From: Escherichia coli
GTDB taxonomy: Bacteria > Pseudomonadota > Gammaproteobacteria > Enterobacterales > Enterobacteriaceae
DNA: 64,000 nucleotides
Assembly (NCBI RefSeq): GCF_003334335.1
Contig: NZ_QOWQ01000013.1
Reading direction: 5' to 3' (one strand)
The notes under the pieces were generated by a model, which was given only the letters and a program-made list of their open reading frames with translations, ran no database searches and had not been told where the DNA came from. A program made the position numbers and the translations under genes. Shown here one piece after another: positions 11,982 through 37,120 of the stretch (the stretch's first letter is position 1; every line of letters starts with the position of its first letter).

Positions 11982-12428
11982 TTACATACTGATTGGCAAC
12001 GCCATGATGATGGCGTCTTCGCGACCGTCCGTGGTGGGGTAGTAATTGCGGCGAATCGTCGCCTCGTTAAAGCCTAAACTTTCGTACAGGGCAATGGCGG
12101 CAGCATTTGAGGCACGGACTTCCAGCCATAGTGTCGCCACGCCGCGTTTTTCCAGTTCGTCGATCAGATGTTCCAGCAGCACCCTTCCCAATCCCTGACG
12201 CTGATAGTCAGGATCGACCGCAATATTGAACAATGTAGCTTCATCCAGCACCACTTGCGTAATCGCAAACGCCGCCATTTTGCCGTTTTGCGTTAACTGA
12301 AAGTTGAGATAACGCTCGCCCTGGTTGCTGGCAAAGGTTTTTTCACTCCACGGAAAGGCGTGGGCGCGTTGTTCAATGTGGTAAGCCGCCGGTAAATCAG
12401 TCGTTTCGAGGGAAGAAATCGTGTTCAT
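11982..12428 (-). CDS. rimI: Ribosomal protein S18 alanine N-acetyltransferase
   Basis: 148 aa GNAT fold ([13 protein letters not shown]); synteny with holD. Confidence 0.9.
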
Positions 12429-14746: not shown

Positions 14747-15535
14747 ATGGCCTATCGTTCCGCACCGCTCTATGAAGATGTTATCTGGCGAACGCATCTC
14801 CAGCCACAGGATGCTGGGCTTGCACAAGCCGTACGTGCGACGATCGCCAAACATCGTGAACATTTGCTCGAGTTTATCCGCCTGGATGAACCCGCTCCGC
14901 TTAACGCCATGACGCTGGCGCAATGGTCATCACCGAATGCGCTAAGTTCTCTACTCGCGGTCTATTCCGATCATATCTATCGCAACCAACCAACGATGAT
15001 CCGCGAGAACAAACCGCTGATCTCACTATGGGCACAATGGTATATCGGCCTGATGGTGCCACCATTAATGCTGGCGCTACTGACGCAGGAAAAGGCATTA
15101 GATGTGTCGCCGGAACATTTCCACGTTGAGTTTCACGAAACCGGCCGTGCCGCCTGTTTCTGGGTCGATGTGTGTGAAGATAAAAACGCAACACCACATT
15201 CGCCGCAGCAGCGAATGGAAACGTTAATCAGCCAGGCGCTGGTTCCGGTTGTGCAGGCACTAGAAGCGACCGGAGAGATCAACGGCAAACTTATCTGGAG
15301 TAATACCGGTTATTTGATCAACTGGTATCTCACTGAGATGAAGCAACTGCTCGGCGAGGCGACGGTTGAATCGCTGCGCCATGCCCTCTTTTTTGAGAAA
15401 ACGCTCACGAACGGTGAAGATAATCCACTCTGGCGTACCGTGGTACTGCGCGACGGCCTGCTGGTGCGCCGCACTTGCTGCCAGCGTTATCGCTTACCGG
15501 ATGTGCAGCAATGTGGCGATTGTACGCTGAAATGA
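14747..15535 (+). CDS. fhuF: Ferric-siderophore reductase FhuF (C-terminal 2Fe-2S cluster)
   Basis: 262 aa ending CCQRYRLPDVQQCGDCTLK (C-C-x10-C-x2-C). Confidence 0.9.
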   Translation: MAYRSAPLYEDVIWRTHLQPQDAGLAQAVRATIAKHREHLLEFIRLDEPAPLNAMTLAQWSSPNALSSLLAVYSDHIYRNQPTMIRENKPLISLWAQWYIGLMVPPLMLALLTQEKALDVSPEHFHVEFHETGRAACFWVDVCEDKNATPHSPQQRMETLISQALVPVVQALEATGEINGKLIWSNTGYLINWYLTEMKQLLGEATVESLRHALFFEKTLTNGEDNPLWRTVVLRDGLLVRRTCCQRYRLPDVQQCGDCTLK

Positions 15536-20968: not shown

Positions 20969-23260
20969 TTGTCAGAACTACTCTCTTTCGCCCTTTTTCT
21001 CGCCTCTGTGCTGATTTACGCATGGAAAGCGGGACGTAACACCTGGTGGTTTGCAGCCACATTAACGGTGCTGGGGCTATTTGTCGTTTTAAATATCACC
21101 CTGTTTGCCAGCGACTATTTTACTGGCGATGGTATTAACGACGCGGTTCTCTATACCTTAACCAACAGCCTGACCGGTGCTGGCGTCAGCAAATACATCC
21201 TGCCGGGTATCGGCATTGTGCTGGGGCTGACGGCGGTGTTCGGTGCGCTGGGCTGGATCCTGCGCCGTCGTCGTCATCATCCGCACCATTTTGGTTACAG
21301 CCTGCTGGCACTCTTACTGGCGCTGGGTTCAGTGGATGCCAGCCCGGCATTTCGTCAGATAACGGAACTGGTGAAATCCCAGTCACGCGACGGCGACCCG
21401 GACTTTGCGGCTTATTATAAAGAGCCGTCGAAAACTATCACTGACCCGAAACTCAACCTGGTTTATATCTACGGCGAAAGTCTCGAGCGAACCTATTTTG
21501 ATAACGAAGCTTTCCCGGATCTCACGCCTGAACTGGGCGCGTTGAAAAATGAAGGCCTAGATTTCAGCCACACGCAGCAGCTGCCAGGAACGGATTACAC
21601 GATTGCGGGCATGGTGGCTTCTCAGTGCGGCATACCGCTGTTTGCCCCCTTTGAAGGCAACGCCTCCGCTTCTGTTTCCAGCTTCTTCCCGCAGAACATC
21701 TGTCTGGGCGATATCCTGAAAAACTCGGGTTATCAGAACTATTTCGTGCAGGGCGCGAATCTGCGTTTTGCCGGTAAAGATGTGTTCCTGAAGTCGCATG
21801 GCTTCGACCACTTATACGGCTCAGAAGAGCTGAAAAGCGTGGTCGCCGACCCGCACTATCGCAACGACTGGGGATTCTACGACGATACCGTTCTCGATGA
21901 AGCGTGGAAAAAGTTTGAAGAGCTTTCCCGCTCAGGTCAGCGATTCTCACTGTTTACCCTGACAGTCGATACCCATCACCCGGATGGTTTTATCTCGCGC
22001 ACCTGTAACCGCAAAAAATATGATTTTGACGGTAAGCCGAATCAGTCATTCAGCGCGGTAAGTTGCAGCCAGGAGAACATCGCGACGTTTATCAACAAAA
22101 TCAAAGCGTCACCGTGGTTTAAAGATACTGTCATCGTCGTCTCTTCTGACCATTTAGCGATGAACAACACGGCGTGGAAATACCTCAATAAGCAGGATCG
22201 CAATAACCTGTTTTTTGTCATCCGTGGCGACAAGCCGCAGCAAGAGACGCTGGCAGTGAAGCGTAATACGATGGATAACGGCGCGACGGTGCTGGACATT
22301 CTCGGTGGCGATAACTATCTCGGACTTGGTCGTAGCAGTTTATCCGGGCAGTCAATGTCGGAAATCTTCCTCAATATCAAAGAGAAAACATTGGCGTGGA
22401 AGCCGGATATCATCCGCCTGTGGAAATTCCCTAAAGAGATGAAAGAGTTCACCATCGACCAGCAGAAAAACATGATTGCCTTCTCGGGTAGCCATTTCCG
22501 TTTGCCGCTGCTGTTGCGGGTTTCAGACAAACGCGTGGAACCGCTGCCGGAAAGCGAATACTCAGCACCGCTGCGTTTCCAGCTGGCCGATTTCGCTCCA
22601 CGCGACAATTTCGTCTGGGTTGACCGTTGCTATAAGATGGCACAACTCTGGGCTCCGGAACTGGCACTTTCCACCGACTGGTGTGTCTCGCAGGGGCAGC
22701 TTGGCGGTCAGCAAATTGTCCAGCATGTTGATAAAACAATGTGGAAGGGCAAAACGGCATTTAAAGATACGGTCATCGACATGGCGCGTTACAAAGGCAA
22801 TGTCGATACGCTGAAGATTGTTGATAACGATATTCGCTACAAAGCCGACAGTTTCATCTTTAACGTCGCCGGTGCGCCAGAAGAGGTGAAACAGTTTAGC
22901 GGGATTTCCCGTCCGGAGTCGTGGGGCCGCTGGTCCAACGCGCAGCTGGGCGATGAAGTAAAAATCGAGTACAAGCATCCGCTGCCGAAGAAATTTGACC
23001 TGGTGATTACCGCCAAAGCATACGGCAATAACGCCAGCCGTCCTATTCCGGTACGCGTAGGCAATGAAGAACAAACTCTTGTGCTGGGCAATGAAGTGAC
23101 CACCACCACACTGCATTTCGATAACCCAACCGATGCCGACACACTGGTAATTGTGCCGCCGGAACCTGTCTCAACCAACGAAGGGAATATCCTCGGACAC
23201 TCGCCGCGTAAGCTCGGGATCGGCATGGTGGAAATTAAAGTTGTGGAACGTGAAGGGTAA
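20969..23260 (+). CDS. opgB: Phosphoglycerol transferase I (osmoregulated periplasmic glucan biosynthesis)
   Basis: 763 aa; TTG start predicted by track; N-terminal TM segments plus sulfatase-like catalytic domain. Confidence 0.9.
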
Positions 23261-23265
23261 TTCCT

Positions 23266-23320
23266 GACTGATGTGTAGGTCGCATAAGGTGCGACCTACA
23301 CACCTTCTCCGGCCTACAAA
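23266..23320. repeat. REP palindrome downstream of opgB (likely also a transcript-stabilising/terminating hairpin)
   Basis: gtgtaggtcgcataaggtgcgacctacac perfect inverted repeat followed by ccggcctacaaa. Confidence 0.7.
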
Positions 23321-23399
23321 ACATCATTGAGAAACAGAAAAAAAACAGCGCCCAACACTTCCCCGGACGCTGCATGGCAACTTTAATAATCTCGCCTTA

Positions 23400-24422
23400 T
23401 CAGAAAGTAATTACACCCTTAATCAACTCACGATTGTTAATCACATCGCGCTCGTAGGTTTCTGCCAGCGTGGCGAACGGATAGCGATGGGTTAACATCA
23501 TGTCAGCAGTGATTTTTCCTTCCGCCATCAGTCGACCGACTTTAGCAAAATCTTCCGGCGTGGCGTTGCGGCTGCCCATCATCGTCGTTTCTTTTTTATG
23601 GAATTCCGGATCGGAGAACTGCAACTCACCTTTAAACAGGCCGACAAATACCACCGTGCCGCCGTGACGAATCAGATTTACGGTGTTATTCATCGCATGT
23701 TGATTACCTGTCGCGTCGATCACTTTCTGCGCCAGCGAACCACCAAACTGCGCCCGCAGCTGCGCGTCAAAATCTTCGGCTGACGGGTCCAGCACGGGCA
23801 ACTCCAGACGCGTTGCCACATGTTCTCGGCGTGCCGGACTGGTATCCGCCACCACCACCTGTGCGCCATCAGCTTTAGCGATTGCCGCCGCGCCCAGACC
23901 GATTGGCCCCGCCCCGACCACCAGCACCTGCTCGCCGGGAGCAATGGCTGCACGACGCACCGCATGTGCGCTAATAGCGAAAGGTTCAATCAATGCTGCC
24001 GCCTGCGGGTCAATACCGTCTGCGGGCAAAATGTTCGCCACCGGCACGCTCAAATACTCACTAAAACCACCATCCTGATGCACACCAATAACTGAAATTT
24101 TTTCACAGCAATTGGTACGCCCGCTTTTACACGCCGGACATTGCTGACAGGCAACATAAGGGATCACAGCAACTTGCTGACCATTTTTAAGATCAGCAAT
24201 ATTTTTACCCAGCCCAACAATCTCCCCACATATTTCATGGCCTAAAACCCGTGGATAACTAAAAAATGGTTGATTTCCACCCCAGGCATGAATATCGGTA
24301 CCGCAAATCCCGACAGACTTAATTTTTATTAATGCTTCATTGTCACCCGGAATAGGTATCTCGCGTTGTTTCCAGACTAATTCTTTCGGCTGCTGGCAAA
24401 TTAAAACATTCATTGTAGACAT
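23400..24422 (-). CDS. lgoD: L-galactonate 5-dehydrogenase (Zn-dependent MDR family)
   Basis: 340 aa from MSTMNVLICQQPKEL; GHEICGEI zinc-binding motif and VVGAGPIGL Rossmann motif. Confidence 0.9.
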   Translation of the reverse strand: MSTMNVLICQQPKELVWKQREIPIPGDNEALIKIKSVGICGTDIHAWGGNQPFFSYPRVLGHEICGEIVGLGKNIADLKNGQQVAVIPYVACQQCPACKSGRTNCCEKISVIGVHQDGGFSEYLSVPVANILPADGIDPQAAALIEPFAISAHAVRRAAIAPGEQVLVVGAGPIGLGAAAIAKADGAQVVVADTSPARREHVATRLELPVLDPSAEDFDAQLRAQFGGSLAQKVIDATGNQHAMNNTVNLIRHGGTVVFVGLFKGELQFSDPEFHKKETTMMGSRNATPEDFAKVGRLMAEGKITADMMLTHRYPFATLAETYERDVINNRELIKGVITF

Positions 24423-24560
24423 GATTCGGCTCTCCATTTTTTGTTGCCTTAGATATCAATGAAAATGAAAAATGGCAGCGGAACGGAAAATCTGTTTTGT
24501 GAAAACACACGCATAAAAATGTTTTAAATCGGGTTTTAATGGACTCACAAGGAGGAAAAT

Positions 24561-25475
24561 ATGAGTCGCTCACAAAATTTACGCCACAATGTGATTAACC
24601 AGGTCATTGATGATATGGCGCGGGGTCATATCCCTTCCCCACTTCCATCGCAAAGTGCGCTGGCGGAAATGTACAACATCAGCCGCACTACAGTGCGTCA
24701 TATTCTCAGCCACTTACGCGAATGCGGCGTCTTAACGCAGGTTGGAAACGACTATGTTATTGCGCGTAAACCTGACCATGATGACGGTTTCGCCTGTACT
24801 ACCGCTTCAATGAGTGAACAAAACAAAGTGTTTGAGCAGGCTTTTTTCACGATGATAAACCAGCGTCAGTTACGCCCTGGGGAAACTTTTTCTGAACTGC
24901 AACTGGCGCGGGCCGCGGGTGTCAGCCCGGTGGTTGTAAGAGAATATCTTTTAAAATTCGGCCGTTATAATCTTATTCAAAGCGAAAAGCGCGGCCAGTG
25001 GAGCATGAAGCAATTCGATCAATCCTACGCCGAGCAGCTGTTTGAGCTACGCGAAATGCTCGAAACACATTCACTTCAGCACTTTCTCAACCTGCCTGAT
25101 CATGATCCCCGCTGGCTGCAGGCGAAAACCATGCTCGAACGTCATCGGCTACTGCGTGACAACATCGGCAATAGCTTTCGCATGTTCTCGCAACTTGACA
25201 GAGATTTTCACTCCTTACTGCTTTCAGCTGCCGACAATATCTTTTTTGATCAATCGCTTGAGATCATCTCAGTCATCTTTCATTTTCACTATCAATGGGA
25301 CGAAAGCGATCTTAAACAGCGCAATATCATTGCCGTCGATGAGCATATGACCATTCTCAGCGCTCTGATTTGCCGCAGTGACCTTGATGCCACCCTTGCG
25401 CTCCGTAACCATTTGAATTCAGCTAAACAATCAATGATTCGATCCATTAATGAGAACACGCGTTATGCTCATTAA
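24561..25475 (+). CDS. lgoR: GntR/FadR-like transcriptional regulator of L-galactonate catabolism
   Basis: 304 aa; divergent from lgoD, upstream of lgoT; N-terminal HTH (ALAEMYNISRTTVRHIL). Confidence 0.85.
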   Translation: MSRSQNLRHNVINQVIDDMARGHIPSPLPSQSALAEMYNISRTTVRHILSHLRECGVLTQVGNDYVIARKPDHDDGFACTTASMSEQNKVFEQAFFTMINQRQLRPGETFSELQLARAAGVSPVVVREYLLKFGRYNLIQSEKRGQWSMKQFDQSYAEQLFELREMLETHSLQHFLNLPDHDPRWLQAKTMLERHRLLRDNIGNSFRMFSQLDRDFHSLLLSAADNIFFDQSLEIISVIFHFHYQWDESDLKQRNIIAVDEHMTILSALICRSDLDATLALRNHLNSAKQSMIRSINENTRYAH

Positions 25476-25689
25476 GTACGGATTAAAAACAGCAAACTAT
25501 TAGCGGGTGCACGGTTTTATCAAAAGATAAATACCGGGAAATTCCCGCTTACCTATGCTCACAATCAGTCGACTAAAAATGTTTTTGTGAGCGGTAGTAA
25601 AGTCCTAAAACTTTAACCTGCCGTTAATGTCAACCTTGCGTAATGCACAATTACGTAAACAATTAAAATTATAAATACAGGAGTCCGGC

Positions 25690-27051
25690 GTGGAAAAAGA
25701 AAATATCACCCTCGATCCGCGTTCTTCATTTACTCCATCTTCGTCGGCAGATATTCCCGTGCCACCAGATGGATTAGTTCAACGCAGTACCCGAATTAAA
25801 CGCATTCAAACCACCGCCATGTTGTTATTATTTTTTGCGGCGGTAATCAATTATCTCGACCGCAGTTCGCTGTCGGTAGCAAATTTAACGATTCGTGAAG
25901 AATTGGGATTAAGTGCCACCGAAATCGGCGCTTTGCTCTCCGTGTTTTCACTCGCTTACGGGATTGCGCAACTTCCTTGCGGCCCACTATTGGATCGTAA
26001 AGGCCCGCGCCTGATGCTGGGACTCGGGATGTTCTTCTGGTCACTGTTCCAGGCAATGTCTGGCATGGTGCACAGCTTTACGCAGTTCGTGTTGGTGCGT
26101 ATCGGTATGGGGATTGGTGAAGCGCCGATGAACCCATGCGGTGTAAAAGTCATTAACGACTGGTTCAACATCAAAGAGCGCGGACGCCCGATGGGCTTCT
26201 TCAACGCAGCTTCTACCATTGGCGTTGCCGTAAGCCCACCGATTCTGGCGGCGATGATGCTGGTGATGGGCTGGCGTGGGATGTTTATTACCATTGGTGT
26301 GCTGGGGATTTTTCTCGCCATTGGCTGGTATATGCTCTATCGCAACCGCGAGCACGTAGAACTGACTGCCGTTGAACAAGCTTACCTCAATGCTGGTAGC
26401 GTGAATGCCCGCCGAGATCCGCTCAGTTTTGCCGAATGGCGCAGCCTGTTCCGTAACCGCACAATGTGGGGAATGATGCTCGGATTCAGTGGCATCAACT
26501 ACACTGCGTGGCTGTATCTGGCCTGGCTTCCTGGTTACCTGCAAACAGCCTATAACCTGGATTTAAAAAGCACAGGGTTGATGGCGGCTATCCCTTTCCT
26601 GTTTGGGGCTGCCGGGATGCTGGTCAACGGTTACGTTACTGACTGGCTGGTCAAAGGGGGAATGGCTCCGATTAAAAGCCGTAAGATCTGCATTATTGCC
26701 GGGATGTTCTGTTCTGCCGCCTTTACGCTGGTCGTACCGCAAGCGACAACATCCATGACGGCGGTTCTGCTGATTGGCATGGCACTGTTCTGTATTCACT
26801 TTGCCGGAACATCCTGCTGGGGCTTGATCCACGTCGCAGTTGCTTCTCGCATGACTGCGTCGGTGGGCAGTATCCAGAACTTTGCCAGCTTCATCTGCGC
26901 CTCTTTCGCGCCGATCATTACTGGTTTTATTGTTGATACCACCCATTCATTCCGTCTGGCACTAATCATCTGCGGTTGCGTCACTGCGGCGGGTGCACTG
27001 GCGTACATCTTCCTGGTTCGTCAGCCGATCAACGACCCACGGAAAGATTAA
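25690..27051 (+). CDS. lgoT: MFS L-galactonate:H+ symporter
   Basis: 453 aa, 12-TM MFS with anion:cation symporter signature. Confidence 0.85.
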   Translation: MEKENITLDPRSSFTPSSSADIPVPPDGLVQRSTRIKRIQTTAMLLLFFAAVINYLDRSSLSVANLTIREELGLSATEIGALLSVFSLAYGIAQLPCGPLLDRKGPRLMLGLGMFFWSLFQAMSGMVHSFTQFVLVRIGMGIGEAPMNPCGVKVINDWFNIKERGRPMGFFNAASTIGVAVSPPILAAMMLVMGWRGMFITIGVLGIFLAIGWYMLYRNREHVELTAVEQAYLNAGSVNARRDPLSFAEWRSLFRNRTMWGMMLGFSGINYTAWLYLAWLPGYLQTAYNLDLKSTGLMAAIPFLFGAAGMLVNGYVTDWLVKGGMAPIKSRKICIIAGMFCSAAFTLVVPQATTSMTAVLLIGMALFCIHFAGTSCWGLIHVAVASRMTASVGSIQNFASFICASFAPIITGFIVDTTHSFRLALIICGCVTAAGALAYIFLVRQPINDPRKD

Positions 27052-27060
27052 TCTCCCTAT

Positions 27061-27094
27061 GCCCGATAACATTTTGCTTATCGGGCATTTTTAT
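27061..27094. terminator. Bidirectional Rho-independent terminator between lgoT and tsr
   Basis: gcccgataa-cattttgc-ttatcgggc stem-loop followed by attttta; A/T tracts on both sides. Confidence 0.6.
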
Positions 27095-27099
27095 GGCGA

Positions 27100-28764
27100 T
27101 TAAAACGTTTCCCAGTTCTCCCCGCTATCTGCCACGGCCATTTTACGCGGCGCAGCTGGCGTCACGGTTTTTACCACAGCCGATGTTTCACGCTGCTGTT
27201 GCTGCTGTTGCTGAATCCGGAACACTGCCACAGCTTCGGTCAGGCGACTGGCCTGCTCTTCCAGCGCGGCGGCGGCAGCGGCAGATTCTTCCACCAGCGC
27301 AGCGTTCTGTTGGGTTACTCTGTCCATCTCAGCGACCGCTAAGCCAACCTGATCGATACCACGGCTCTGCTCATCAGAAGCCGAAGCAATTTCGCCCATA
27401 ATGTCCGTCACGCGGGTCACGGCACTGACAATCTCCGCCATTGTTTCCCCTGCGCTTTCGACCAGCGTAGAGCCAACATCTACTTTCCCCACCGAGTCTT
27501 CAATCAGGCTTTTAATTTCACGAGCCGCCTGAGCGCTGCGCTGGGCCAGATTACGCACTTCACCCGCGACCACCGCAAAACCGCGCCCTTGCTCACCCGC
27601 GCGCGCTGCTTCAACCGCCGCGTTCAAAGCGAGAATATTGGTCTGGAAGGCAATGCCGTCAATTACGCTGATAATATCGGCGATTTTCTGCGAACTGGTG
27701 GAGATATCGCGCATGGTCTGCACCACGTTATCCACCACTTTGCCGCCGCGTTGCGCCGTTTCAGAAGCACTTAACGCCAGGTGGCTGGCCTGGCGCGCAT
27801 TTTCGGCGTTCTGCTTCACCGTTGCGGTCAGTTGCTCCATGCTGGCTGCCGTCTCTTCCAGCGAAGCGGCCTGTTGCTCGGTGCGCGAAGAGAGATCGTT
27901 ATTGCCGGTAGCGATTTCGCTGGCACCGCTATAGATGGCATTGGCCCCGTTGCGCACATCACCGACGGTACGCATCAGCTCTCCCTGCATATGGCGCAAA
28001 CTCTCAGCCAGTTGCCCCATCTCATTAGAGCCATCCACCTCAATCGGTTTCACCAGATCGCCGCCTGCAATATGACGAATGCTGTCAATCAGGCGATTCA
28101 TTGGCGCTACCAACGAGGCTTTAATACCGAACCAGACGGCGAAGATGACCGCCAGTACGACGATCATCACGCCCACCAGAATCCACATCGCCTGGCTGTA
28201 GGAGGCATTATTATCGCTGACGGCGATATCATAGAGCCGATCGTTTTGCTCCATGTAAGCCACATACTGCTTCTCGAAACCGTCCTGATATCCCTGGGTC
28301 GGCTGATCAAAGAACTCGTTGATTTTGCCTGCACCTAACAGTTGGATCAGCTCCGCCAGCGCATTGTGATAAATATCGTAATTACGTTTGATCTCTGCCG
28401 CTGCGGCGGTGCTCTGACGCGGGTCACGCGGCAACGCTTCGTAATCCGCCCAGTTTTTTTCCGCCTGTTTCAGCGAAATACTGGCACTCTGCATCAGCTC
28501 AGCAACGGTTGAACCGCTACCAATATTATTCTGATCCATCATGTAGCGGATACCCGCGCGGTTGAGGGTGTTACGCGTCTGCAACAACGCGACCCAGCTG
28601 CCATTCAGCGTGGATTGCTGCTGGCGAATGGTTTGTAAAACAGTGAAATTTTCTTTGTCATTCTTTAAGGCATTAAAGAACAGACCGCCTGATGTCAGTT
28701 GTAAAAGGCCAAAAACGGCCAAAACCAGCAGTAAGCTGGTCACGATCTTGATACGTTTTAACAT
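27100..28764 (-). CDS. tsr: Methyl-accepting chemotaxis protein I (serine chemoreceptor)
   Basis: 554 aa from [22 protein letters not shown]; HAMP and MCP signalling domain; C-terminal NWETF pentapeptide; run of 7 Gln in the C-terminal linker. Confidence 0.95.
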
Positions 28765-28795
28765 GGTTTCTCTTTCCACTAGACAGATACACTGG

Positions 28796-28822
28796 TTGTC
28801 GGCCTGGTGGTGGAAAACTTTA
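28796..28822 (-). promoter_or_regulatory. Sigma-28 (FliA) class III promoter of tsr
   Basis: Minus strand reads TAAAGTTT-N11-GCCGACAA, matching the FliA consensus TAAAGTTT-N11-GCCGATAA, about 35-60 bp upstream of the tsr start. Confidence 0.7.
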
Positions 28823-28903
28823 TGCTGTGGAAAAGCGTCGGCACTGCTTTTGTTGCAGCAAACTTGCGTTTTTTGTGAGGGTCACACTCTATAGCGGCAG
28901 TTT

Positions 28904-29809
28904 ATGGTACAAAGTATCAATCTTCTTCGAACCAGTGATACTCCTATGGCTTATAGCATCGATATCATCTCCTGCATTACCGAACGGTTTATGGCGTTAA
29001 CAGCCACTGAAAAGCGTATCGCACAATTTATTCTTGATGACGTCTCTGCCGCAGTAGAGTTGCCAATTGCTGAGCTGGCACGGTTAACGCAAACCAGTCA
29101 GGCGTCGGTGACGCGTTTTGCCCGTGCACTGGGGTGCAAAGATGTCCGCGAGTTGAAAGTCAAACTGGCGCAGTCACTGGCTGTCGGGCAGCGGTTTATT
29201 CTCGATGTACCGGATCTTGACGGTGTTCAGGGGATCTACGAAGCGATTATTAGCGTGCTGGAGACGCATCGTCGTTCGCTGGATATGAATGCCATCAGCC
29301 AGGCTGTAAGCTGGTTAAGTCAGGCGCGGCAAATTCTTGCGTTAGGAACTGGCGGCGGTTCCACTATCTGTTCACAGGAGATTCAGTACCGTTTATTCCG
29401 TCTGGGGCTACCGGTGGTCAGTCAGAATGATGCCCTGATGATGAGAATGATGTGCTCGGCAGTCATGCCGCAGGATGTGGTGATTGTGCTTTCGCTGGGC
29501 GGTTATACACCGGAAATCATCGAAAGTGCGGCAATCGCCCGTCAGTATGGCGCGCGTGTTATTGCCATTACGCCAGCACAAACACCGCTGGCGGAACAGG
29601 TGGATCTGGTATTGCCGTTACTGGTTCAGGAAAGTGATTACATCTTTAAGCCCACCCCTTCCCGCTACGCGATGTTAGCCATGGTCGATGTACTGGCAAC
29701 AGAACTGGCAATGGCAAATAAAGCGCAGGCGAAAGATCGCCTGCGGCGGATAAAACTCGTGTTAGACAGCCACCGTGGGGGCGCTAACCGCCAGCCACTT
29801 GGCGATTAG
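28904..29809 (+). CDS. RpiR/MurR-family transcriptional regulator (HTH_6 + SIS domain)
   Basis: 301-aa ORF; N-terminal HTH (TEKRIAQFILDD...LARLTQTSQASVTRFARALG) and C-terminal SIS sugar-phosphate-binding-like domain; alternative start at Met15 (28946). Not part of the K-12 tsr-btsT interval as I recall it. Confidence 0.75.
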   Translation: MVQSINLLRTSDTPMAYSIDIISCITERFMALTATEKRIAQFILDDVSAAVELPIAELARLTQTSQASVTRFARALGCKDVRELKVKLAQSLAVGQRFILDVPDLDGVQGIYEAIISVLETHRRSLDMNAISQAVSWLSQARQILALGTGGGSTICSQEIQYRLFRLGLPVVSQNDALMMRMMCSAVMPQDVVIVLSLGGYTPEIIESAAIARQYGARVIAITPAQTPLAEQVDLVLPLLVQESDYIFKPTPSRYAMLAMVDVLATELAMANKAQAKDRLRRIKLVLDSHRGGANRQPLGD

Positions 29810-29818
29810 CATTGTCGG

Positions 29819-31288
29819 TTATGCTTCTTCAGGTTTGGTGATCACGACACTCTGGTTTTCACGCTCATTGGTGATAATAGCCAAAGCTTCTTCCCGGCTG
29901 ACCTGACTTGCTGGCGTTACCAACGTCACCAGTACGCCAGCGACCAGGCTGCCCAGCACTGACGGAATACACGGGTTACCCCAGTAAGCCAGCCAGTCGG
30001 CATTCATCAGCACCACAATTGACATCACCATACCGCTCACTAACGCCGCCAGCGCGCCCTGCCAGTTAAAGCGTAGCCAGAAGCGACCGAGAATCGAGCA
30101 GATAAACAGCCCGGACATCAGCATCGAAATCATTTTGGTAATGTAGCTGATGATGTCATTAGAGGTCAGAGCAAAGACCAGCGCCAGGCCAATAACAAAG
30201 GTCAACATCCAGCGTGAGTAAGTAATGGCCTTGTCCTCCGGCGGCATTCTGCCGGTAATCATGGTGTAGACGTCGCGCATCATAATCGCCACCGCCGCGA
30301 TGGCATCGGAGCTGGCAGAAGACATGGTGGCTGAAAGCCCGGCAATCAGCACCACCAGCCCAAGAATGGCAGGTAAGAAACTGGTCGCGAACAAGAAGGC
30401 GTAGTTGCTGTTTTCCAGATTTGGGTTCATGGTGAACGCCGCCATGCCGATAATGGCAGGCAAAATCGAGAAGAACAGATATAACACCCCAGTAATAACA
30501 AACGAACGGCGTACAGAGGGAACATCTTTACCCGAGTAAATACGCTGGCGATAAGACGGTGTGGCCAGTACGCCGACACCAATAACCAGCGCCAGCGAAA
30601 GCGCAGGTAGAACGCCCATTTTATCAATCGCAAACAGGCTCATCGCTTTTGGGTCCATCGCCTGTTCAATCGCACTCCAGCCGCCAACGTGAACAACGGC
30701 GAGAATAGCCATCAATATAAAGCCAAAGAACAGAATTAAGGCCTGAATGGTGTCTGTCCACACTACCGCCGAATAACCGCCGATAATAACGTAAATCGCA
30801 AAAGCTAAGGCGATAATTAATTTTGCTACAGTAAGATCAATACCTGTTGCCCAGGCAAGATACATACTGCCACCTAATATATGCGCCCCCAGCCAGCCAA
30901 TAGAGGCAATAAATATCATCAGGCCGACAATATTTTTAATTAAATGACTCCCGCCAGTATAATAAGATATTTCTTCACTCATGGTCATAAAACGTAATTT
31001 ACGTACCGGTGCAAACAGCCACGCCACCAGTAATATACCTACGGCCCCACCGACGCCATAAAGCATTCCGGCCCAGCCATTGCTGTAGCCAAAGCCCACG
31101 GCGCCCATACTGGAACCCGTGCCAACCATCGTGGCAACGGTTGAGCCCAGCGTCAGAAACAGCGGCAACGAACGCCCGCCCAGCAGAAAATCTTCTCCGC
31201 TTTTCTGATTACGAGACACAAACCAACCAAGCCAAATCATGGCGATGGCATAAATAATAAAGCCGACTAAAAAGATATGACTGTTCAT
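29819..31288 (-). CDS. Sodium:solute symporter (SSF family) transporter
   Basis: 489 aa, about 13 TM segments; N-terminal region typical of PutP/PanF-type SSF carriers. Confidence 0.75.
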   Translation of the reverse strand: MNSHIFLVGFIIYAIAMIWLGWFVSRNQKSGEDFLLGGRSLPLFLTLGSTVATMVGTGSSMGAVGFGYSNGWAGMLYGVGGAVGILLVAWLFAPVRKLRFMTMSEEISYYTGGSHLIKNIVGLMIFIASIGWLGAHILGGSMYLAWATGIDLTVAKLIIALAFAIYVIIGGYSAVVWTDTIQALILFFGFILMAILAVVHVGGWSAIEQAMDPKAMSLFAIDKMGVLPALSLALVIGVGVLATPSYRQRIYSGKDVPSVRRSFVITGVLYLFFSILPAIIGMAAFTMNPNLENSNYAFLFATSFLPAILGLVVLIAGLSATMSSASSDAIAAVAIMMRDVYTMITGRMPPEDKAITYSRWMLTFVIGLALVFALTSNDIISYITKMISMLMSGLFICSILGRFWLRFNWQGALAALVSGMVMSIVVLMNADWLAYWGNPCIPSVLGSLVAGVLVTLVTPASQVSREEALAIITNERENQSVVITKPEEA

Positions 31289-31390
31289 AATTCACATCCT
31301 GCCAGTAGAGAGAGAATAAAGTAAGAGTTCCCGGAGTGCTGAATGTATTCAGCACTCAATTGCGGTCTATTTTTTTAATTCTTAAATTTA

Positions 31391-31786
31391 TTAGCGGGTC
31401 GCGTTATAACAGGTCACATCGACTTCAACTTTACAATCGACAACCAGATCAGCTACACAACAAATACGTGCAGGCGGATTCTCGCCAAAAAATTCTCTGA
31501 ATACTTTATTAAATGACTGGAAATAGCGGGCGTCGGTCAGGATCACTTTCACGTGAACCACATCCGCCAGGCTATAACCGGCTTCAGTCATGATGTCGAC
31601 ACAGTTTTGGATCGCCAGTCGTGACTGTTCAACGATACCGCCTTCTACCACTTCACCGTTTTTCATGGGGGTTTGCCCGGAGACGTACAGCCAGCCGCCC
31701 GCCTCAACCGCCCTGGCAAACGGCAAATGCTGCCCGCCAGTGCCTGTTCCACCTTCCGTACCGTAACGTTTAATACTCATATTCAC
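31391..31786 (-). CDS. RidA/YjgF-family reactive enamine/imine deaminase
   Basis: 131 aa with the conserved RidA C-terminal signature (PARICCVADL...VEVDV). Confidence 0.75.
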   Translation of the reverse strand: MNMSIKRYGTEGGTGTGGQHLPFARAVEAGGWLYVSGQTPMKNGEVVEGGIVEQSRLAIQNCVDIMTEAGYSLADVVHVKVILTDARYFQSFNKVFREFFGENPPARICCVADLVVDCKVEVDVTCYNATR

Positions 31787-31789
31787 TCC

Positions 31790-33241
31790 TTAATGTGAGG
31801 TCTGGCGGCGCAGGAAGCGTCCCGCACGGCCTGTAATGTGTTTATCGCGACCATAGCTCATAACGCCGTTCACCATCACCGCCTCAATGCCATCTGCCGG
31901 GCGTTTGGGATCAGAAAAGCTGGCAACATCACGAATGGTTTGTGGATCGAACAACACCAGGTCCGCAAAATAGCCGACTTTCACCAGCCCACGCTGAGGC
32001 AGACGAAAACGGCTGGCAGAAAGCCCGGTCATTTTGTGGATAGCCGTGGTCAGTGGGAATAAGCCTTCATCACGGCAATAGTGACCCAGCACGCGAGGGA
32101 AAGCGCCCCATAAACGCGGATGCGGCATGGGATCATTGGGCAGTCCGTCAGAGCCAATCATACTGACCGGATAACTCAACACTCTGCGGACGTCGCGCTC
32201 GTCCATGTTGTAATAGATAGCCCCGGCAGGCATCAGCAACTTCGCGGCCTCCAGCATACTCATCTGCCAGTCGATGGCGATTTGTGCCAGTGTTTTCCCG
32301 GCCTGCTGCGGATGTGTTTGTGACCAGGTGATCACAATATCGAATTCGTCGGTGACTTGTTTGAGATCCAGCGTTGAAGAACTGGCCGAGTAAGGGTAGA
32401 CATCGCAGCCAATTTCCTGGTGTTGACGCATTTGGTCAAAAAAGGCCAACGTTTCTTTTGTCCGCCCCCAGTTTTTCGCCCCGGCGCATTTATGGTGGGA
32501 AACCACGACAGGCACTTTGCCATGACGCCCAATACGAAACGCCTCATCCAGGGCATCGAGAATCGGTTCAAATTCAGAACGCAGATGGGTGGTATAAACG
32601 CCCTTCTCACCGGCTAATTCTTCCGCCAGCGCCATGACTTCTTCGGTAGTCGCCTGAAATGCCGTTGCATAGGCCAGCCCGGAACTTAACCCCAGCGCCC
32701 CCTGACTCAACGCCAGACGTAAGTCGGCACGCATAGCGGCAATTTCATCCACCGTCGCCGGGCGAAACAGGTCGTCCATATGGTTATTACGCAGCGCCGT
32801 ATGACCAATCAGCGTGCCAACGTTCAGTGACGGCCTGGCTGCTTCCACTGCCTGGGCATAGCTTTCAACGGTAGGATAAATAAAGTGCTCTGCTTCCCCC
32901 AACAGATTCATCGGGTCAGGAACTTCACCTTTCATTTTCGCCGACGCCGCACTGATCCCGCAGTTACCGACAATCACCGTAGTGATCCCCTGGCTGATCT
33001 TTGGCAGATATTCCGGGATGCGAATAACGTTGATATCGTCATGGGTATGAACGTCGATAAACCCTGGTGCCAGCACCCGCCCTTCCCCGTCAATGACCTG
33101 CTGCGCCGTAACGTTAAGCGCAGGGGCAATATCGACAATCCGATCACCTGTTATTGCCACGTCACCGCGAAATTCAGGGCCGCCGCTACCGTCGATAACG
33201 GTCACATTTTTGATTAACCAGTCAACCTGCATGTTCGTCAC
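31790..33241 (-). CDS. N-acyl-D-amino-acid deacylase-like amidohydrolase (D-aminoacylase family)
   Basis: 483 aa; N-terminus IKNVTVIDGSGGP...APGFIDVHTHDD is the metal-binding HxH start of D-aminoacylase-type amidohydrolases; 4-nt gap to the RidA gene. Confidence 0.75.
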   Translation of the reverse strand: MTNMQVDWLIKNVTVIDGSGGPEFRGDVAITGDRIVDIAPALNVTAQQVIDGEGRVLAPGFIDVHTHDDINVIRIPEYLPKISQGITTVIVGNCGISAASAKMKGEVPDPMNLLGEAEHFIYPTVESYAQAVEAARPSLNVGTLIGHTALRNNHMDDLFRPATVDEIAAMRADLRLALSQGALGLSSGLAYATAFQATTEEVMALAEELAGEKGVYTTHLRSEFEPILDALDEAFRIGRHGKVPVVVSHHKCAGAKNWGRTKETLAFFDQMRQHQEIGCDVYPYSASSSTLDLKQVTDEFDIVITWSQTHPQQAGKTLAQIAIDWQMSMLEAAKLLMPAGAIYYNMDERDVRRVLSYPVSMIGSDGLPNDPMPHPRLWGAFPRVLGHYCRDEGLFPLTTAIHKMTGLSASRFRLPQRGLVKVGYFADLVLFDPQTIRDVASFSDPKRPADGIEAVMVNGVMSYGRDKHITGRAGRFLRRQTSH

Positions 33242-33432
33242 TCCATTTCTGCAATGGTGACAAGTTAACCATTTACAAGGACGAAAAACAGTGGAAAACT
33301 ACGCAAAACCCAGATGATTTTATGATACTTTTATTCATAAATAATAAGATAAATAAACTAAATATTTATATTTCATTTAGTTACAAATGATACTCACATC
33401 CGATACGGTGAAAAACTTAAAAGGTAAATGTT

Positions 33433-34653
33433 ATGAAATACCACTCAGAACCTCTGGTTCCCCATAAATCTGCCCTGATGCAAATGCCCGCAAATCTCCT
33501 TGCCGAAGATGTCTGTTTACCTGCCGCGATCATTAAAAAGCAGGCCCTGGAGAACAACATTACGTGGATGCAACGCTACGCTGACGCGCGCGGCGTTTCA
33601 CTGGCACCGCACGGTAAAACCACCATGACGCCGTGGATTTTTCAGGCGCAGCAGGCGGCTGGTGCCTGGGCAATAGGTGTCGGTAGCGCATGGCAGGCTG
33701 GTGCGGCAATGGCGAGCGGTATTCAGCGAGTGCTGATGGTTAACCAGCTGGTCGGCAAGGCGAATATGCAGTTGATTGCCCAGTTGCAACAACATTACCC
33801 GACGGTCGATTTTATCTGCTGTATCGACAGCATTGAGAACGCCCGCGCTTTGTCTGCCTTTTTTGCCAGTCAGCAACAGACACTGAACGTGATGATTGAA
33901 CTGGGTGTTCCCGGCGGGCGCTGTGGTTGCCGCTCAACGGATGCCGCACTGGCACTGGCTAAACAGGCAGCCCAATTACCGGGGTTACGCCTGCGGGGGC
34001 TTGAGTTATATGAAGGCGTTTTACACGGTGACGATCCACAACCGCAGGTAGAAGCTCTGCTGCGGGATGCCGCACAACTGGCCTGTGATATGGCAAATCT
34101 GGTTGATGGCGAGTTTATTCTCACCGGAGCAGGCACGGTCTGGTATGACGTGGTGTGCAATATCTGGCTGGCGGCAGAAAAGCCTGATAACTGCCGCATT
34201 GTTATTCGCCCTGGCTGCTACATCACTCACGACACCGGGATCTACGACGCGGCACAACAACAGTTGCTTGCCCGTGATCCTGTGGCCTGCGATCTGGCAG
34301 GCGATCTCACATCTGCGCTGGAACTGGTCGCCATGGTGCAATCGGTGCCGGAAGCTGATCGTGCGGTGGTAAATTTTGGTAAGCGTGATTGCGCCTTCGA
34401 CGCCGGACTGCCGCAACCAGTCGCCCACTACCGCAACGGCAAATCACTGGCATTTGATCCACAGGCGATTCGCAGTACAGGTATTATGGATCAGCACTGC
34501 ATGTTGCAACTGTCAGCTAATAGCGACGTGCAAGTGGGGGATATTCTGGTGTTTGGCACATCGCATCCGTGCCTGACCTTCGACAAATGGAAAACGTTGT
34601 TATTGACTGATGACGACTACAACGTACTGGCAGAATTAGACACTCTCTTCTAA
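33433..34653 (+). CDS. Alanine-racemase-fold (type III PLP) D-serine-dehydratase-like enzyme (DSD1 family)
   Basis: 406 aa; probable PLP lysine in APHGKTT near the N-terminus; fold-type III architecture with C-terminal beta domain. Confidence 0.7.
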   Translation: MKYHSEPLVPHKSALMQMPANLLAEDVCLPAAIIKKQALENNITWMQRYADARGVSLAPHGKTTMTPWIFQAQQAAGAWAIGVGSAWQAGAAMASGIQRVLMVNQLVGKANMQLIAQLQQHYPTVDFICCIDSIENARALSAFFASQQQTLNVMIELGVPGGRCGCRSTDAALALAKQAAQLPGLRLRGLELYEGVLHGDDPQPQVEALLRDAAQLACDMANLVDGEFILTGAGTVWYDVVCNIWLAAEKPDNCRIVIRPGCYITHDTGIYDAAQQQLLARDPVACDLAGDLTSALELVAMVQSVPEADRAVVNFGKRDCAFDAGLPQPVAHYRNGKSLAFDPQAIRSTGIMDQHCMLQLSANSDVQVGDILVFGTSHPCLTFDKWKTLLLTDDDYNVLAELDTLF

Positions 34654-34657
34654 GAAC

Positions 34658-34693
34658 GCCCCTTCGGTTAATTATCGAAGGGGCATTTTTATT
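34658..34693 (+). terminator. Rho-independent terminator after the DSD1-like gene
   Basis: gccccttcg-gttaattat-cgaaggggc hairpin followed by atttttatt. Confidence 0.7.
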
Positions 34694-34756
34694 GTGATCT
34701 CAATCACATATCCACCCGACGAATAATTCTTGCCCAACCGCTCACCGCCATTCCTG

Positions 34757-34785
34757 ACCGCTTACATCCCTAAAATAACCACTCA
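34757..34785 (+). promoter_or_regulatory. BtsR (YehT) response-regulator binding site in the btsT promoter
   Basis: Direct repeat ACCGCTTA (34757-34764) and ACCACTCA (34778-34785) separated by 13 bp, matching the ACC(G/A)CT(C/T)A-N13 repeat described for the yjiY/btsT promoter. Confidence 0.65.
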
Positions 34786-34920: not shown

Positions 34921-37071
34921 ATGGATACTAAAAAGATATTCAAGCACATACCCTGGGTGATTCTCGGAATCATCGGTGCATTCTGCCTCGCGGTAGTTGC
35001 ATTACGTCGGGGGGAGCACGTCAGTGCCCTGTGGATCGTGGTCGCCTCTGTGTCGGTGTATCTGGTGGCTTATCGCTACTACAGTCTGTACATCGCCCAG
35101 AAGGTGATGAAACTCGACCCCACGCGCGCGACGCCTGCGGTTATTAACAACGACGGTCTGAACTACGTTCCGACCAACCGTTACGTGTTGTTTGGTCACC
35201 ACTTCGCCGCTATCGCCGGTGCTGGTCCGCTGGTTGGTCCGGTTCTCGCCGCGCAGATGGGCTACCTGCCTGGCACGCTGTGGCTGCTGGCGGGGGTAGT
35301 GCTGGCCGGTGCAGTACAGGACTTTATGGTACTGTTTATCTCCTCTCGCCGTAACGGCGCATCTCTCGGTGAGATGATCAAAGAAGAGATGGGACCAGTA
35401 CCGGGGACTATCGCGCTGTTTGGCTGTTTCTTAATCATGATCATCATCCTTGCCGTCCTGGCGCTGATTGTGGTTAAAGCCCTGGCCGAAAGTCCGTGGG
35501 GTGTCTTCACCGTTTGCTCAACCGTACCGATTGCGCTGTTTATGGGTATCTACATGCGCTTTATTCGTCCGGGGCGTGTGGGTGAAGTCTCTGTCATTGG
35601 TATCGTGCTGCTGGTTGCCTCTATCTACTTCGGTGGCGTGATTGCTCACGATCCGTACTGGGGTCCGGCACTGACCTTTAAAGACACCACCATTACCTTC
35701 GCGCTGATTGGCTATGCGTTTGTTTCCGCACTGCTGCCAGTGTGGCTGATCCTCGCACCGCGCGACTATCTGGCAACCTTCCTGAAAATCGGCGTTATCG
35801 TCGGCCTGGCGCTGGGTATCGTGGTGTTGAACCCGGAACTGAAAATGCCTGCGATGACCCAGTACATTGACGGTACTGGCCCGCTGTGGAAAGGCGCTCT
35901 GTTCCCGTTCCTGTTCATCACCATCGCCTGTGGTGCGGTATCTGGCTTCCACGCGCTGATCTCTTCCGGCACGACACCGAAACTGCTGGCTAACGAAACC
36001 GACGCGCGTTTCATTGGCTACGGCGCAATGCTGATGGAGTCCTTCGTGGCGATTATGGCGCTGGTTGCTGCGTCCATCATCGAACCGGGTCTTTACTTCG
36101 CGATGAATACCCCGCCTGCTGGCCTTGGCATCACCATGCCTAACCTGCATGAAATGGGTGGCGAGAACGCGCCGATCATCATGGCGCAGCTGAAAGACGT
36201 TACCGCACACGCGGCAGCGACCGTCAGCTCCTGGGGCTTCGTGATTTCGCCAGAGCAGATCCTGCAAACAGCGAAAGATATTGGTGAGCCTTCTGTCCTG
36301 AACCGTGCAGGTGGTGCGCCGACGCTGGCGGTAGGTATCGCTCACGTGTTCCACAAAGTGCTGCCGATGGCTGACATGGGCTTCTGGTATCACTTCGGTA
36401 TTCTGTTCGAAGCCCTGTTCATCCTGACCGCGCTGGATGCGGGTACCCGTTCTGGCCGCTTTATGCTGCAAGACCTGCTGGGTAACTTCATCCCGTTCCT
36501 GAAAAAAACCGACTCTCTGGTTGCCGGTATCATCGGTACTGCGGGCTGTGTGGGTCTGTGGGGCTACCTGCTGTATCAGGGCGTGGTCGATCCGCTGGGC
36601 GGCGTTAAGAGCCTGTGGCCGCTGTTCGGTATCTCCAACCAGATGCTGGCAGCCGTAGCGCTGGTACTGGGCACCGTTGTGCTGATTAAGATGAAGCGCA
36701 CCCAATACATCTGGGTAACTGTTGTTCCGGCTGTATGGCTGCTTATCTGCACCACCTGGGCGCTGGGCCTGAAACTGTTCAGCACCAACCCGCAGATGGA
36801 AGGCTTCTTCTACATGGCAAGCCAGTACAAAGAGAAGATTGCTAACGGTACTGACCTGACGGCACAGCAGATTGCCAACATGAACCACATCGTTGTGAAC
36901 AACTACACCAACGCGGGCCTGAGTATTCTGTTCCTGATTGTGGTGTACAGCATCATCTTCTACGGTTTCAAAACCTGGCTGAAGGTGCGTAACAGCGACA
37001 AACGTACTGACAAAGAAACTCCGTACGTTCCAATCCCGGAAGGCGGCGTGAAGATCTCTTCGCACCACTAA
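34921..37071 (+). CDS. btsT: Pyruvate/H+ symporter, CstA family
   Basis: 716 aa from MDTKKIFKHIPWVILGIIGAFCLAVVAL; polytopic CstA-family transporter. Confidence 0.9.
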   Translation: MDTKKIFKHIPWVILGIIGAFCLAVVALRRGEHVSALWIVVASVSVYLVAYRYYSLYIAQKVMKLDPTRATPAVINNDGLNYVPTNRYVLFGHHFAAIAGAGPLVGPVLAAQMGYLPGTLWLLAGVVLAGAVQDFMVLFISSRRNGASLGEMIKEEMGPVPGTIALFGCFLIMIIILAVLALIVVKALAESPWGVFTVCSTVPIALFMGIYMRFIRPGRVGEVSVIGIVLLVASIYFGGVIAHDPYWGPALTFKDTTITFALIGYAFVSALLPVWLILAPRDYLATFLKIGVIVGLALGIVVLNPELKMPAMTQYIDGTGPLWKGALFPFLFITIACGAVSGFHALISSGTTPKLLANETDARFIGYGAMLMESFVAIMALVAASIIEPGLYFAMNTPPAGLGITMPNLHEMGGENAPIIMAQLKDVTAHAAATVSSWGFVISPEQILQTAKDIGEPSVLNRAGGAPTLAVGIAHVFHKVLPMADMGFWYHFGILFEALFILTALDAGTRSGRFMLQDLLGNFIPFLKKTDSLVAGIIGTAGCVGLWGYLLYQGVVDPLGGVKSLWPLFGISNQMLAAVALVLGTVVLIKMKRTQYIWVTVVPAVWLLICTTWALGLKLFSTNPQMEGFFYMASQYKEKIANGTDLTAQQIANMNHIVVNNYTNAGLSILFLIVVYSIIFYGFKTWLKVRNSDKRTDKETPYVPIPEGGVKISSHH

Positions 37072-37080
37072 CCGTGTTTA

Positions 37081-37107
37081 GCCCCGCTTCGGCGGGGCTT
37101 TGTTCTT
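37081..37107 (+). terminator. Rho-independent terminator after btsT
   Basis: gccccgc-ttcg-gcggggc hairpin (GNRA-like loop) followed by tttgttctt. Confidence 0.75.
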
Positions 37108-37120
37108 ATCAGAGTGAACT

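Follow-up and report, generated by a model that had tools for sequence, protein, structure and literature searches.

The five genes between tsr and btsT in an Escherichia coli genome match the core of the ong cluster and form one allele of a multi-allelic interval

In Escherichia coli K-12 MG1655, the genes tsr and btsT are divergent neighbours separated by a 377-bp spacer. In the stretch of E. coli DNA analysed here (64,000 nucleotides of contig NZ_QOWQ01000013.1, RefSeq assembly GCF_003334335.1; hereafter the window), the spacer between tsr (27100-28764, minus strand) and btsT (34921-37071, plus strand) measures 6,156 bp and holds five intact open reading frames (ORFs). What do these five genes do, and how did they come to lie between tsr and btsT? 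We consider it probable that they are ongR-ongIT-ongD-ongB-ongC, the cytoplasmic core of an ong cluster for N-acetyl-D-glucosaminate (2-acetamido-2-deoxy-D-gluconate, GlcNAc1A), and that the cassette is one of several alleles found in the tsr-btsT interval, an old one that purifying selection maintains and that moves by homologous recombination and deletion. The original prediction, made from the letters of the window, had correctly stated that tsr and btsT are adjacent and divergent in K-12 and had drawn up the right inventory of five genes. It had read the cassette through D-amino-acid enzymes, one D-aminoacylase-like and one DSD1-like, and so missed the function, since the genes match a published pathway for N-acetyl-D-glucosaminate.

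The five genes are annotated alike by RefSeq in a 99.9% identical genome, as a MurR/RpiR regulator, a sodium:solute symporter, RidA, an amidohydrolase and an "amino acid deaminase". The gene ongR (28946-29809, plus strand) encodes a MurR/RpiR-family regulator, the predicted repressor of the cassette; it was recognized by an NCBIfam HexR/MurR-type model and by the RefSeq annotation, and its HTH_6 and SIS domains were read with Pfam on the Escherichia fergusonii orthologue. The gene ongIT (29819-31288, minus strand; TIGR00813) encodes a sodium:solute symporter of the SSF family, the predicted importer of an oxidised amino sugar, and ongD (31391-31780, minus strand; TIGR00004) encodes an imine/enamine deaminase of the RidA family. 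The gene ongB (31790-33232, minus strand; Pfam Amidohydro_3) encodes a subtype-V (Cys/His/His) amidohydrolase, predicted to be an N-acetyl-D-glucosaminate deacetylase. Divergent from ongB, as in other clusters, ongC (33433-34653, plus strand) encodes a protein of fold type III that depends on pyridoxal 5'-phosphate (PLP) and resembles D-serine dehydratase, with Pfam domains PF01168 (Ala_racemase_N) and PF14031 (D-ser_dehydrat) and a match to PDB 3GWQ at E=3e-107; it is the predicted D-glucosaminate ammonia-lyase, forming a 2-keto-3-deoxy sugar acid.

All five proteins map to one cluster in each of two Vibrio genomes, with amino acid identities of 44-86%: 51-55% for OngR, 68-69% for OngIT and 84-86% for OngD, which is also 96% identical to its Leclercia counterpart. 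The orthology of OngR, OngIT, OngD and OngC rests on these Vibrio clusters and on the table of Jiang et al. (2022), rather than on sequences of Pseudoalteromonas prydzensis, the species in which the pathway was worked out.

For OngB, the comparison could be made with the P. prydzensis enzyme itself. PpOngB deacetylates GlcNAc1A, a product of the attack of lytic polysaccharide monooxygenases (LPMOs) on chitin (PMC9537276, PMC12017989), and the residues separating GlcNAc1A deacetylases from true D-aminoacylases were defined by Wang et al. 2025 (PMC12017989). OngB of the window aligns to PpOngB (PDB 9KB1) without gaps at 53.7% identity. The Cys/His/His metal ligands and the catalytic Asp (C91/H216/H246/D362) are all present, and 17 of the 18 cavity residues of PpOngB are kept. 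At the specificity positions, S286, Q292, A187, A250 and S284 correspond to S292, Q298, A193, A256 and S290 of PpOngB, all of OngB type. The Alcaligenes D-aminoacylase AfDam aligns with Phe, Met, Gly and Thr at the positions of A187, A250, S284 and S286, and has Leu298 at the position of Q292 (Wang et al. 2025, PMC12017989). Where a D-aminoacylase pocket has Phe191, Met254, Leu298 or Arg295, and Thr in place of Ser292 of PpOngB, the window OngB has Ala, Ala, Gln and Ser.

The published cluster consists of genes for a TonB receptor, OngC, OngR and OngB, together with those for OngD, OngIT, KdgK and the hexosaminidase OngA (Jiang et al. 2022, PMC9537276). By genetics and biochemistry in P. prydzensis, OngIT, OngB, OngC and OngD are needed for the use of GlcNAc1A, OngIT being required for growth on it, and OngR is a repressor (PMC9537276). 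OngC, a D-amino-acid-deaminase-like protein, converts D-glucosaminate to 2-keto-3-deoxygluconate (KDG) and NH3, and the RidA protein OngD is essential in vivo in strain ACAM 620, with its role left unassigned there (Jiang et al. 2022, PMC9537276). In the Supplementary Data of the same study, the entry "ong cluster +" is given to E. fergusonii ECD227, Escherichia sp. MOD1-EC4550 and 13 strains of E. coli, scored without lpmo, ongOT-1, kdgK and ongA (PMC9537276); the kind of cluster and its membership in E. coli were thus already known. The genes DQW89_RS21245-21270 of E. coli E308, tabulated there as ongR/IT/D/B/C, are exactly the five genes adjoining tsr. Poultry and other animals were the source of many carriers on the list. 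The E. coli cassette thus has in common with the clusters of P. prydzensis ACAM 620 and Vibrio the same five clustered protein families and the OngB specificity residues; it differs from them in gene order and in having no kdgK, ongA, TonB-dependent receptor or LPMO gene. Next to the ong genes, the two Vibrio clusters have an ORF of 819 aa and the genes for a PfkB-type KdgK and an Eda-type aldolase.

By analogy with the work in P. prydzensis, we infer the substrate, the pathway flux and the regulation in E. coli to be as follows. The Na+/solute symporter OngIT would import GlcNAc1A, the C1-oxidised sugar freed when LPMOs attack chitin, and the Zn amidohydrolase OngB would strip its acetyl group to leave D-glucosaminate. 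OngC would then carry out a PLP-dependent alpha,beta-elimination of water and ammonia, giving KDG, and OngD probably hastens the hydrolysis of the imine, as the chemistry of RidA suggests. KdgK and Eda, or DgoK and DgoA, encoded elsewhere, would take the product to pyruvate and glyceraldehyde-3-phosphate; housekeeping kdgK and dgoK are presumably present in this E. coli, as they are in K-12. Until substrate arrives, OngR would repress the divergent ongB and ongC promoters.

Those promoters would lie in the AT-rich, 200-bp control region between ongB and ongC (33233-33432). In an alignment of 13 species of Enterobacterales, three blocks of this region were nearly invariant (33262-33279, 33285-33308 and 33323-33337), and these blocks are putative operators. 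A perfect 24-nt palindrome, GAGTGCTGAATGTATTCAGCACTC, lies between ongD and ongIT (31334-31357). It was considered as a conserved OngR operator and rejected, since it is specific to E. coli and not conserved in other Enterobacterales.

The proposed route resembles the D-glucosaminate route of an enteric bacterium that is based on the phosphotransferase system (PTS), in that an oxidised amino sugar is fed into a KDG-6-phosphate/aldolase pathway. As far as the description of that route goes, and the comparison is one of descriptions, it differs in that phosphorylation by the PTS comes first, the lyase is unrelated, and neither a deacetylase nor a symporter of the SSF type takes part.

Several observations weigh against the assignment to N-acetyl-D-glucosaminate. 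The sole cavity mismatch of OngB replaces G348 of PpOngB with N342, and OngC is only 44-46% identical to its Vibrio counterparts. No ORF for a KDG kinase was found within 28825-34692, and no gene for an LPMO, the TonB-dependent receptor OngOT or the periplasmic hexosaminidase OngA in the tsr-btsT interval. In addition, sister clusters of enterobacteria use DgoK/DgoA-type enzymes and not the KdgK/Eda type of Vibrio, which hints at a galacto-configured substrate, and the close OngB relative KleDacyl of Klebsiella pneumoniae deacetylates several N-acetyl-D-amino acids in vitro (PMC12149444). Since E. coli has no LPMO, outer-membrane receptor or hexosaminidase for this purpose, it could only scavenge free monomer made by others.

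Among the 80 loci listed in the comparison of relatives, the absence of Salmonella, Citrobacter and Klebsiella is uninformative. In the clusters of Leclercia, Cedecea, Rahnella, Buttiauxella, Enterobacter and Paraburkholderia, the ong genes are accompanied by a gene for a DGOK-family kinase (PF05035, E=4e-90) and by one for an aldolase scoring above the NCBIfam cut-off for 2-keto-3-deoxy-6-phosphogalactonate (KDPGal) aldolase. These DgoK/DgoA-type genes and the Gly-to-Asn change in the pocket both hint that the enterobacterial ong branch, the E. coli cassette included, could be something other than a leftover of the chitin pathway, namely a separate system with which bacteria of gut or soil scavenge oxidised amino sugars that differ in configuration or origin. 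Its substrate could be N-acetyl-D-galactosaminate, or D-glucosaminate or D-galactosaminate arising when amino sugars of mucin or the diet are oxidised. We regard such a system as unlikely; if it were real, the long-term persistence of ong as a minority allele would reflect niche-specific selection.

A narrower proposal is that the enterobacterial variant acts on the C4 epimer, degrading N-acetyl-D-galactosaminate or D-galactosaminate to 2-keto-3-deoxygalactonate, which DgoK and DgoA would finish. In its favour are the kinase and aldolase of the sister clusters, the use of a PfkB-type KdgK with Eda in Vibrio instead, and the Asn that both the E. coli and the Klebsiella enzymes carry in place of G348. 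However, Glu220, which binds the C4 hydroxyl in PpOngB, is conserved in the window OngB, and Jiang 2022 groups the enterobacterial clusters with the ong clusters (PMC9537276). The E. coli cassette itself, having neither kinase nor aldolase, offers no direct hint, and no DgoK-like or DgoA-like match was found anywhere in the window. We hold the epimer to be a rather improbable substrate.

A third possibility, close to the original prediction, is a module for N-acyl-D-amino acids, in which N-acetyl-D-serine, -threonine or -methionine would be taken up, hydrolysed by a D-aminoacylase and deaminated by the DSD1-like enzyme, with RidA quenching the enamine. Its best argument is KleDacyl (PDB 9G5M/9GV8; PMC12149444), which is 84% identical to OngB over its full length and has an identical cavity, including Q292 and N342, and which was studied solely for its use in biocatalysis with N-acetyl-D-amino acids, in a paper that covered neither the genomic context nor sugar-acid substrates (PMC12149444). 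The P. prydzensis OngC, moreover, also deaminates D-serine and D-threonine (PMC9537276). Against this, KleDacyl was assayed at 0.2-0.5 mg/ml with a panel that did not include GlcNAc1A, and its polar pocket bound glycerol (PMC12149444). In the published P. prydzensis work, PpOngB and two homologues were inactive on any N-acetyl-D-amino acid. The pocket of OngB is lined by the polar residues of its own type, where true D-aminoacylases have hydrophobic or basic ones, the regulator bears a SIS domain of the sugar type, and the sister clusters carry genes for a 2-keto-3-deoxy-sugar-acid kinase and aldolase. Such a module is doubtful, and we keep to the assignment to N-acetyl-D-glucosaminate. This assignment suggests that KleDacyl, whose recent crystal structure was presented as that of a D-acylase, probably deacetylates sugar acids.

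Next, we asked where the cassette begins and ends. The gene order of the window is that of the K-12 map reversed, opgB-lgoD-lgoR-lgoT-tsr followed, beyond the cassette, by btsT-yjiX-yjiA-mrr-hsdRMS. On the left, tsr is preceded by a sigma-28-type promoter on the minus strand (28796-28822), just where the original prediction had placed it; FliA promoters have an established consensus, and both of its boxes were found. The -35 box TAAAGTTT is the reverse complement of 28815-28822 and the -10 box GCCGACAA that of 28796-28803, with an N11 spacer between them, and the promoter is conserved across the K-12, O157, hpa and ong alleles described below. In blastn comparisons, homology to both K-12 and O157:H7 stops at 28824, 3 nt (28823-28825) upstream of the -35 box, and a six-allele alignment places the divergence point of all tsr-btsT alleles at 28824-28825.

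The right edge is less abrupt. In blastn comparisons, homology resumes at 34738 for K-12, at 34687 for O157 and at 34675 for the hpa allele of E. coli B, and from 34738 on the window is 98% identical to K-12. In the six-allele alignment, the common backbone begins at 34693 in all alleles, and at 34658 when the ong and hpa alleles are compared. Since this shared sequence starts upstream of 34756, the cassette-specific DNA extends from 28825 to about 34657-34692. The original prediction had set the cassette flush against both regulatory regions, from 28823 to 34756; its left edge was essentially exact and its right edge lay about 64-99 bp too far to the right.

The first element on the right is an intrinsic terminator 3' of ongC (34658-34684, plus strand), found by a terminator scan as an 11-bp stem followed by a T-run. 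The same stem, with a different loop, follows hpaC in hpa alleles. This terminator would shield btsT from read-through out of ongC. Next to it lies a palindrome resembling the CRP consensus, TGTGATCTCAATCACA (34693-34708), the first sequence on the btsT side common to all alleles; its K-12 counterpart, TGTGATATGAATCACA, stands at the equivalent distance. CRP binding at this site is putative, resting on the match to the consensus.

Further towards btsT, the octamers ACCGCTTA (34757-34764) and ACCACTCA (34778-34785), on the plus strand and separated by 13 bp, form a direct repeat of BtsR type, present at the predicted place; the motif is labelled by what we take to be the definition of Kraxenberger and co-workers from 2012. 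A printed version of the motif was sought in PMC5552118 and not found there. The ong, hpa and O157 alleles have a third octamer of this type, ACCGCTCA (34737-34744, plus strand), 12 bp upstream of the recognised pair; at that place K-12 has GCCGCTCA. It may be part of the real BtsR binding site.

We then considered how the cassette came to occupy this position. In place of the cassette, K-12 holds a spacer of its own, 135 bp long and unrelated; the difference between the two genomes is therefore a replacement and not a pure insertion, and a simple insertion into a K-12-like site gives way to a multi-allelic replacement locus. Population counts were obtained by allele-specific searches over 5,426 complete E. 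coli genomes, of which four classes account for 5,379. The K-12-type spacer is found in 2,753 genomes, the hpa cluster in 2,068 (38%), an O157-type orphan coding sequence (CDS) in 363, and the ong cassette in 194 (3.6%), plus one remnant. This survey, of the kind that the original prediction had proposed, bears out the accessory status of the cassette, which K-12 does not have.

The hpa (4-hydroxyphenylacetate) cluster of E. coli B, C and W occupies the same interval, with the same left breakpoint, terminator stem and CRP-like site, and likewise has no mobility genes. It differs in its far higher frequency and in its unrelated chemistry, the cleavage of aromatic rings. Prieto and co-workers reportedly mapped the hpa cluster at tsr-btsT in 1996; the open-access literature yielded nothing specific on a tsr-yjiY hotspot. 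Beyond the common left breakpoint, the hpa and O157 alleles share about 35 bp more, and because of this shared stretch we suggest that the O157 orphan allele was derived from the hpa allele. The orphan CDS of O157:H7 (WP_000934391.1; positions 2400-2942 of locus L004) is AT-rich, 543 bp long and annotated as a hypothetical protein.

Within the ong class, one carrier has an IS3 element inside the cassette, and 35 carriers have an added nine-gene cluster between ongC and btsT. In E. coli O6:H16 2011EL-1370-2 (positions 21888-31918 of locus L085), the products of this cluster are an oxidoreductase of the Ldh family, an APC permease, an aldehyde dehydrogenase, a protein like dihydrodipicolinate synthase, an AraC regulator, a 4-hydroxyproline epimerase, a 2Fe-2S protein and two FAD oxidoreductases. 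The set has the look of hydroxyproline catabolism and is one more module at this swap site. The remnant belongs to strain HH45, which has lost ongR, ongIT and ongD and keeps only fragments of ongB and ongC, both frameshifted and that of ongB truncated as well (locus L086, 1455-4231 and 5989-8282). Beyond tsr, HH45 has a TRAP transporter operon in place of lgoT, so that the left neighbour of tsr is variable too.

Marks of a mobile element were sought at the locus. The longest direct repeat common to both boundaries is 5 bp, below the mean of 5.6 in shuffled sequences, and no inverted repeats above chance were found at the two boundaries. There are no tRNA genes as integration targets within 20-45 kb and no integrase- or transposase-like ORF in the tsr-btsT interval of the window. 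The GC content is 51.5% in the cassette and 50.7% in the whole window. Here the original prediction, which had noted a backbone-like GC content and no integrase, tRNA or boundary repeats, holds in full.

Among eight carriers, pairwise differences are 0.05-2.3% in the cassette, 0.1-3.4% in lgoT plus tsr and 0.4-2.7% in btsT-yjiA, and the three regions cluster the carriers similarly. In the cassette genes, the proportion of differing synonymous sites (pS) is 0.04-0.09, and the ratio of nonsynonymous to synonymous differences (pN/pS) is 0.02-0.05. This synonymous divergence, together with the low pN/pS, indicates that the cassette is old and functional. At tsr, the haplotypes that accompany ong lie 1.6-3.8% away from those of the K-12, O157, hpa and remnant alleles, and the latter are only 0.4-1.5% apart from one another. 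This pattern suggests that ong and tsr have long been linked and that, in some backgrounds, the entire tract from tsr to btsT was imported, a hint of which is seen in the allele of enterotoxigenic E. coli.

Other species were then compared. E. fergusonii CP079891 has ong and hpa in tandem, the genes running tsr, ongR ongIT ongD ongB ongC, hpaR hpaG and so on. Its ong genes are 97-98.5% identical to those of the window, whereas tsr is 81% and the tsr-ongR spacer 82% identical; against E. coli, hpaR is 80.5% and hpaG-hpaX 96-97% identical. The excess similarity of ong over tsr implies that the block was exchanged between species, and not merely inherited and lost. With the E. fergusonii ongC-hpaR junction as query, no complete E. 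coli genome gave a match covering at least 80%, and hence no tandem. In Leclercia, the order is tsr, ongR dgoA-like dgoK-like ongIT ongD ongB ongC, hpaR hpaG and so on, with protein identities to the window of 76-96% for ong, 87% for tsr and 91% for lgoT. This order and these identities support a presumably old association of ong, and of ong with hpa, with the tsr-btsT locus.

Exchange is also visible between E. coli strains. AR_0085 is 99.9% identical to the window through the cassette and 2.3% diverged over btsT-yjiA. As its match to the window covers the left side and the cassette but is lost on the right, a recombination breakpoint lies near the right edge of the cassette. The same strain has an 81-bp insertion between btsT and yjiX (window 37072-37120 against 12250-12379 of locus L002).

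That a mobile element recently put a genomic island into a K-12-like intergenic site is highly improbable: the low frequency of ong, and the far greater likeness of E. coli and E. fergusonii in ong than in tsr, which speaks for horizontal movement, would suit it, but there is no integrase, tRNA, insertion sequence (IS) element or boundary repeat, the GC content equals that of the backbone, divergence among carriers reaches 2.3% and pS 0.09, the breakpoints are common to the unrelated hpa and O157 alleles, and the K-12 spacer is replaced rather than interrupted. More probably, homologous recombination and deletion account for its gain, exchange and loss. An old cassette moved by recombination follows from the lack of integrase, tRNA and repeats, from a diversity equal to that of the flanks, and from the order tsr, ong, hpa in both E. 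fergusonii and Leclercia.

The original prediction had also called the cassette possibly ancestral and lost in K-12 rather than recently acquired. That it is not recent is upheld by its flank-like diversity, its pS, the HH45 remnant and the Leclercia and E. fergusonii loci. The loss in K-12 did not find the same backing, as no remnant could be detected in the K-12 spacer. When that 135-bp spacer was treated as a possible decayed piece of the cassette, its best local alignment to the whole cassette scored 33 against a shuffle mean of 27.6, and 25 of 300 shuffles scored as high. Against the 120 bp upstream of the CRP-like site, it scored 16 with a mean of 16.1, and a match to the 3' end of ongC seen by eye was due to chance. 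With no trace of the cassette in the spacer, loss of ong in the lineage of K-12 itself is no more than plausible; the ong-hpa tandem of E. fergusonii and Leclercia and the decaying HH45 remnant speak for it, while the mosaic between species shows that gain through homologous recombination also occurs.

Beyond the published pathway, the present analysis contributes the precise junctions, the frequencies of the alleles, the connection with KleDacyl and the DgoK/DgoA twist in sister clusters. The tsr-btsT interval is an element-free swap site, at which ong, hpa and hydroxyproline-type modules alternate between two fixed promoter elements. It is thus a tidy example of a metabolic polymorphism maintained by homologous recombination, and nothing here overturns current understanding.

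A few smaller observations concern the edges of the alleles. Inside ongC, identity to the version of E. fergusonii and of enterotoxigenic E. coli (ETEC)-type alleles is about 98% before 34635 and drops sharply there to about 70%. The 19 nt at the end of the gene (34635-34653) encode AELDTLF, as in those alleles, with nearly all synonymous sites different. This switch would mark a further old recombination edge. On the tsr side, the leader and promoter spacer of ong-linked alleles (28793-28815) form a distinct haplotype, identical to K-12 at 24 of 32 positions; part of it is closer to Leclercia and E. fergusonii than to other E. coli alleles. Directly upstream of the btsT start codon, hpa-type alleles have an extra segment of about 130 bp (about 15275-15400 of locus L092; 3225-3354 of locus L003) that the ong, K-12 and O157 alleles do not have and that might be a small repeat element.

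Finally, at many Pseudomonas loci (L017, L028, L030, L037, L040 and others), only the pair ongR-ongB is found, with identities of about 63% and 45%. A gene for a methyl-accepting chemotaxis protein lies there on the opposite strand, about 600-2000 bp downstream of the ongB homologue. Genes like ongB thus stand repeatedly near chemoreceptor genes, tsr being the one in Escherichia and Leclercia, which may be a coincidence.

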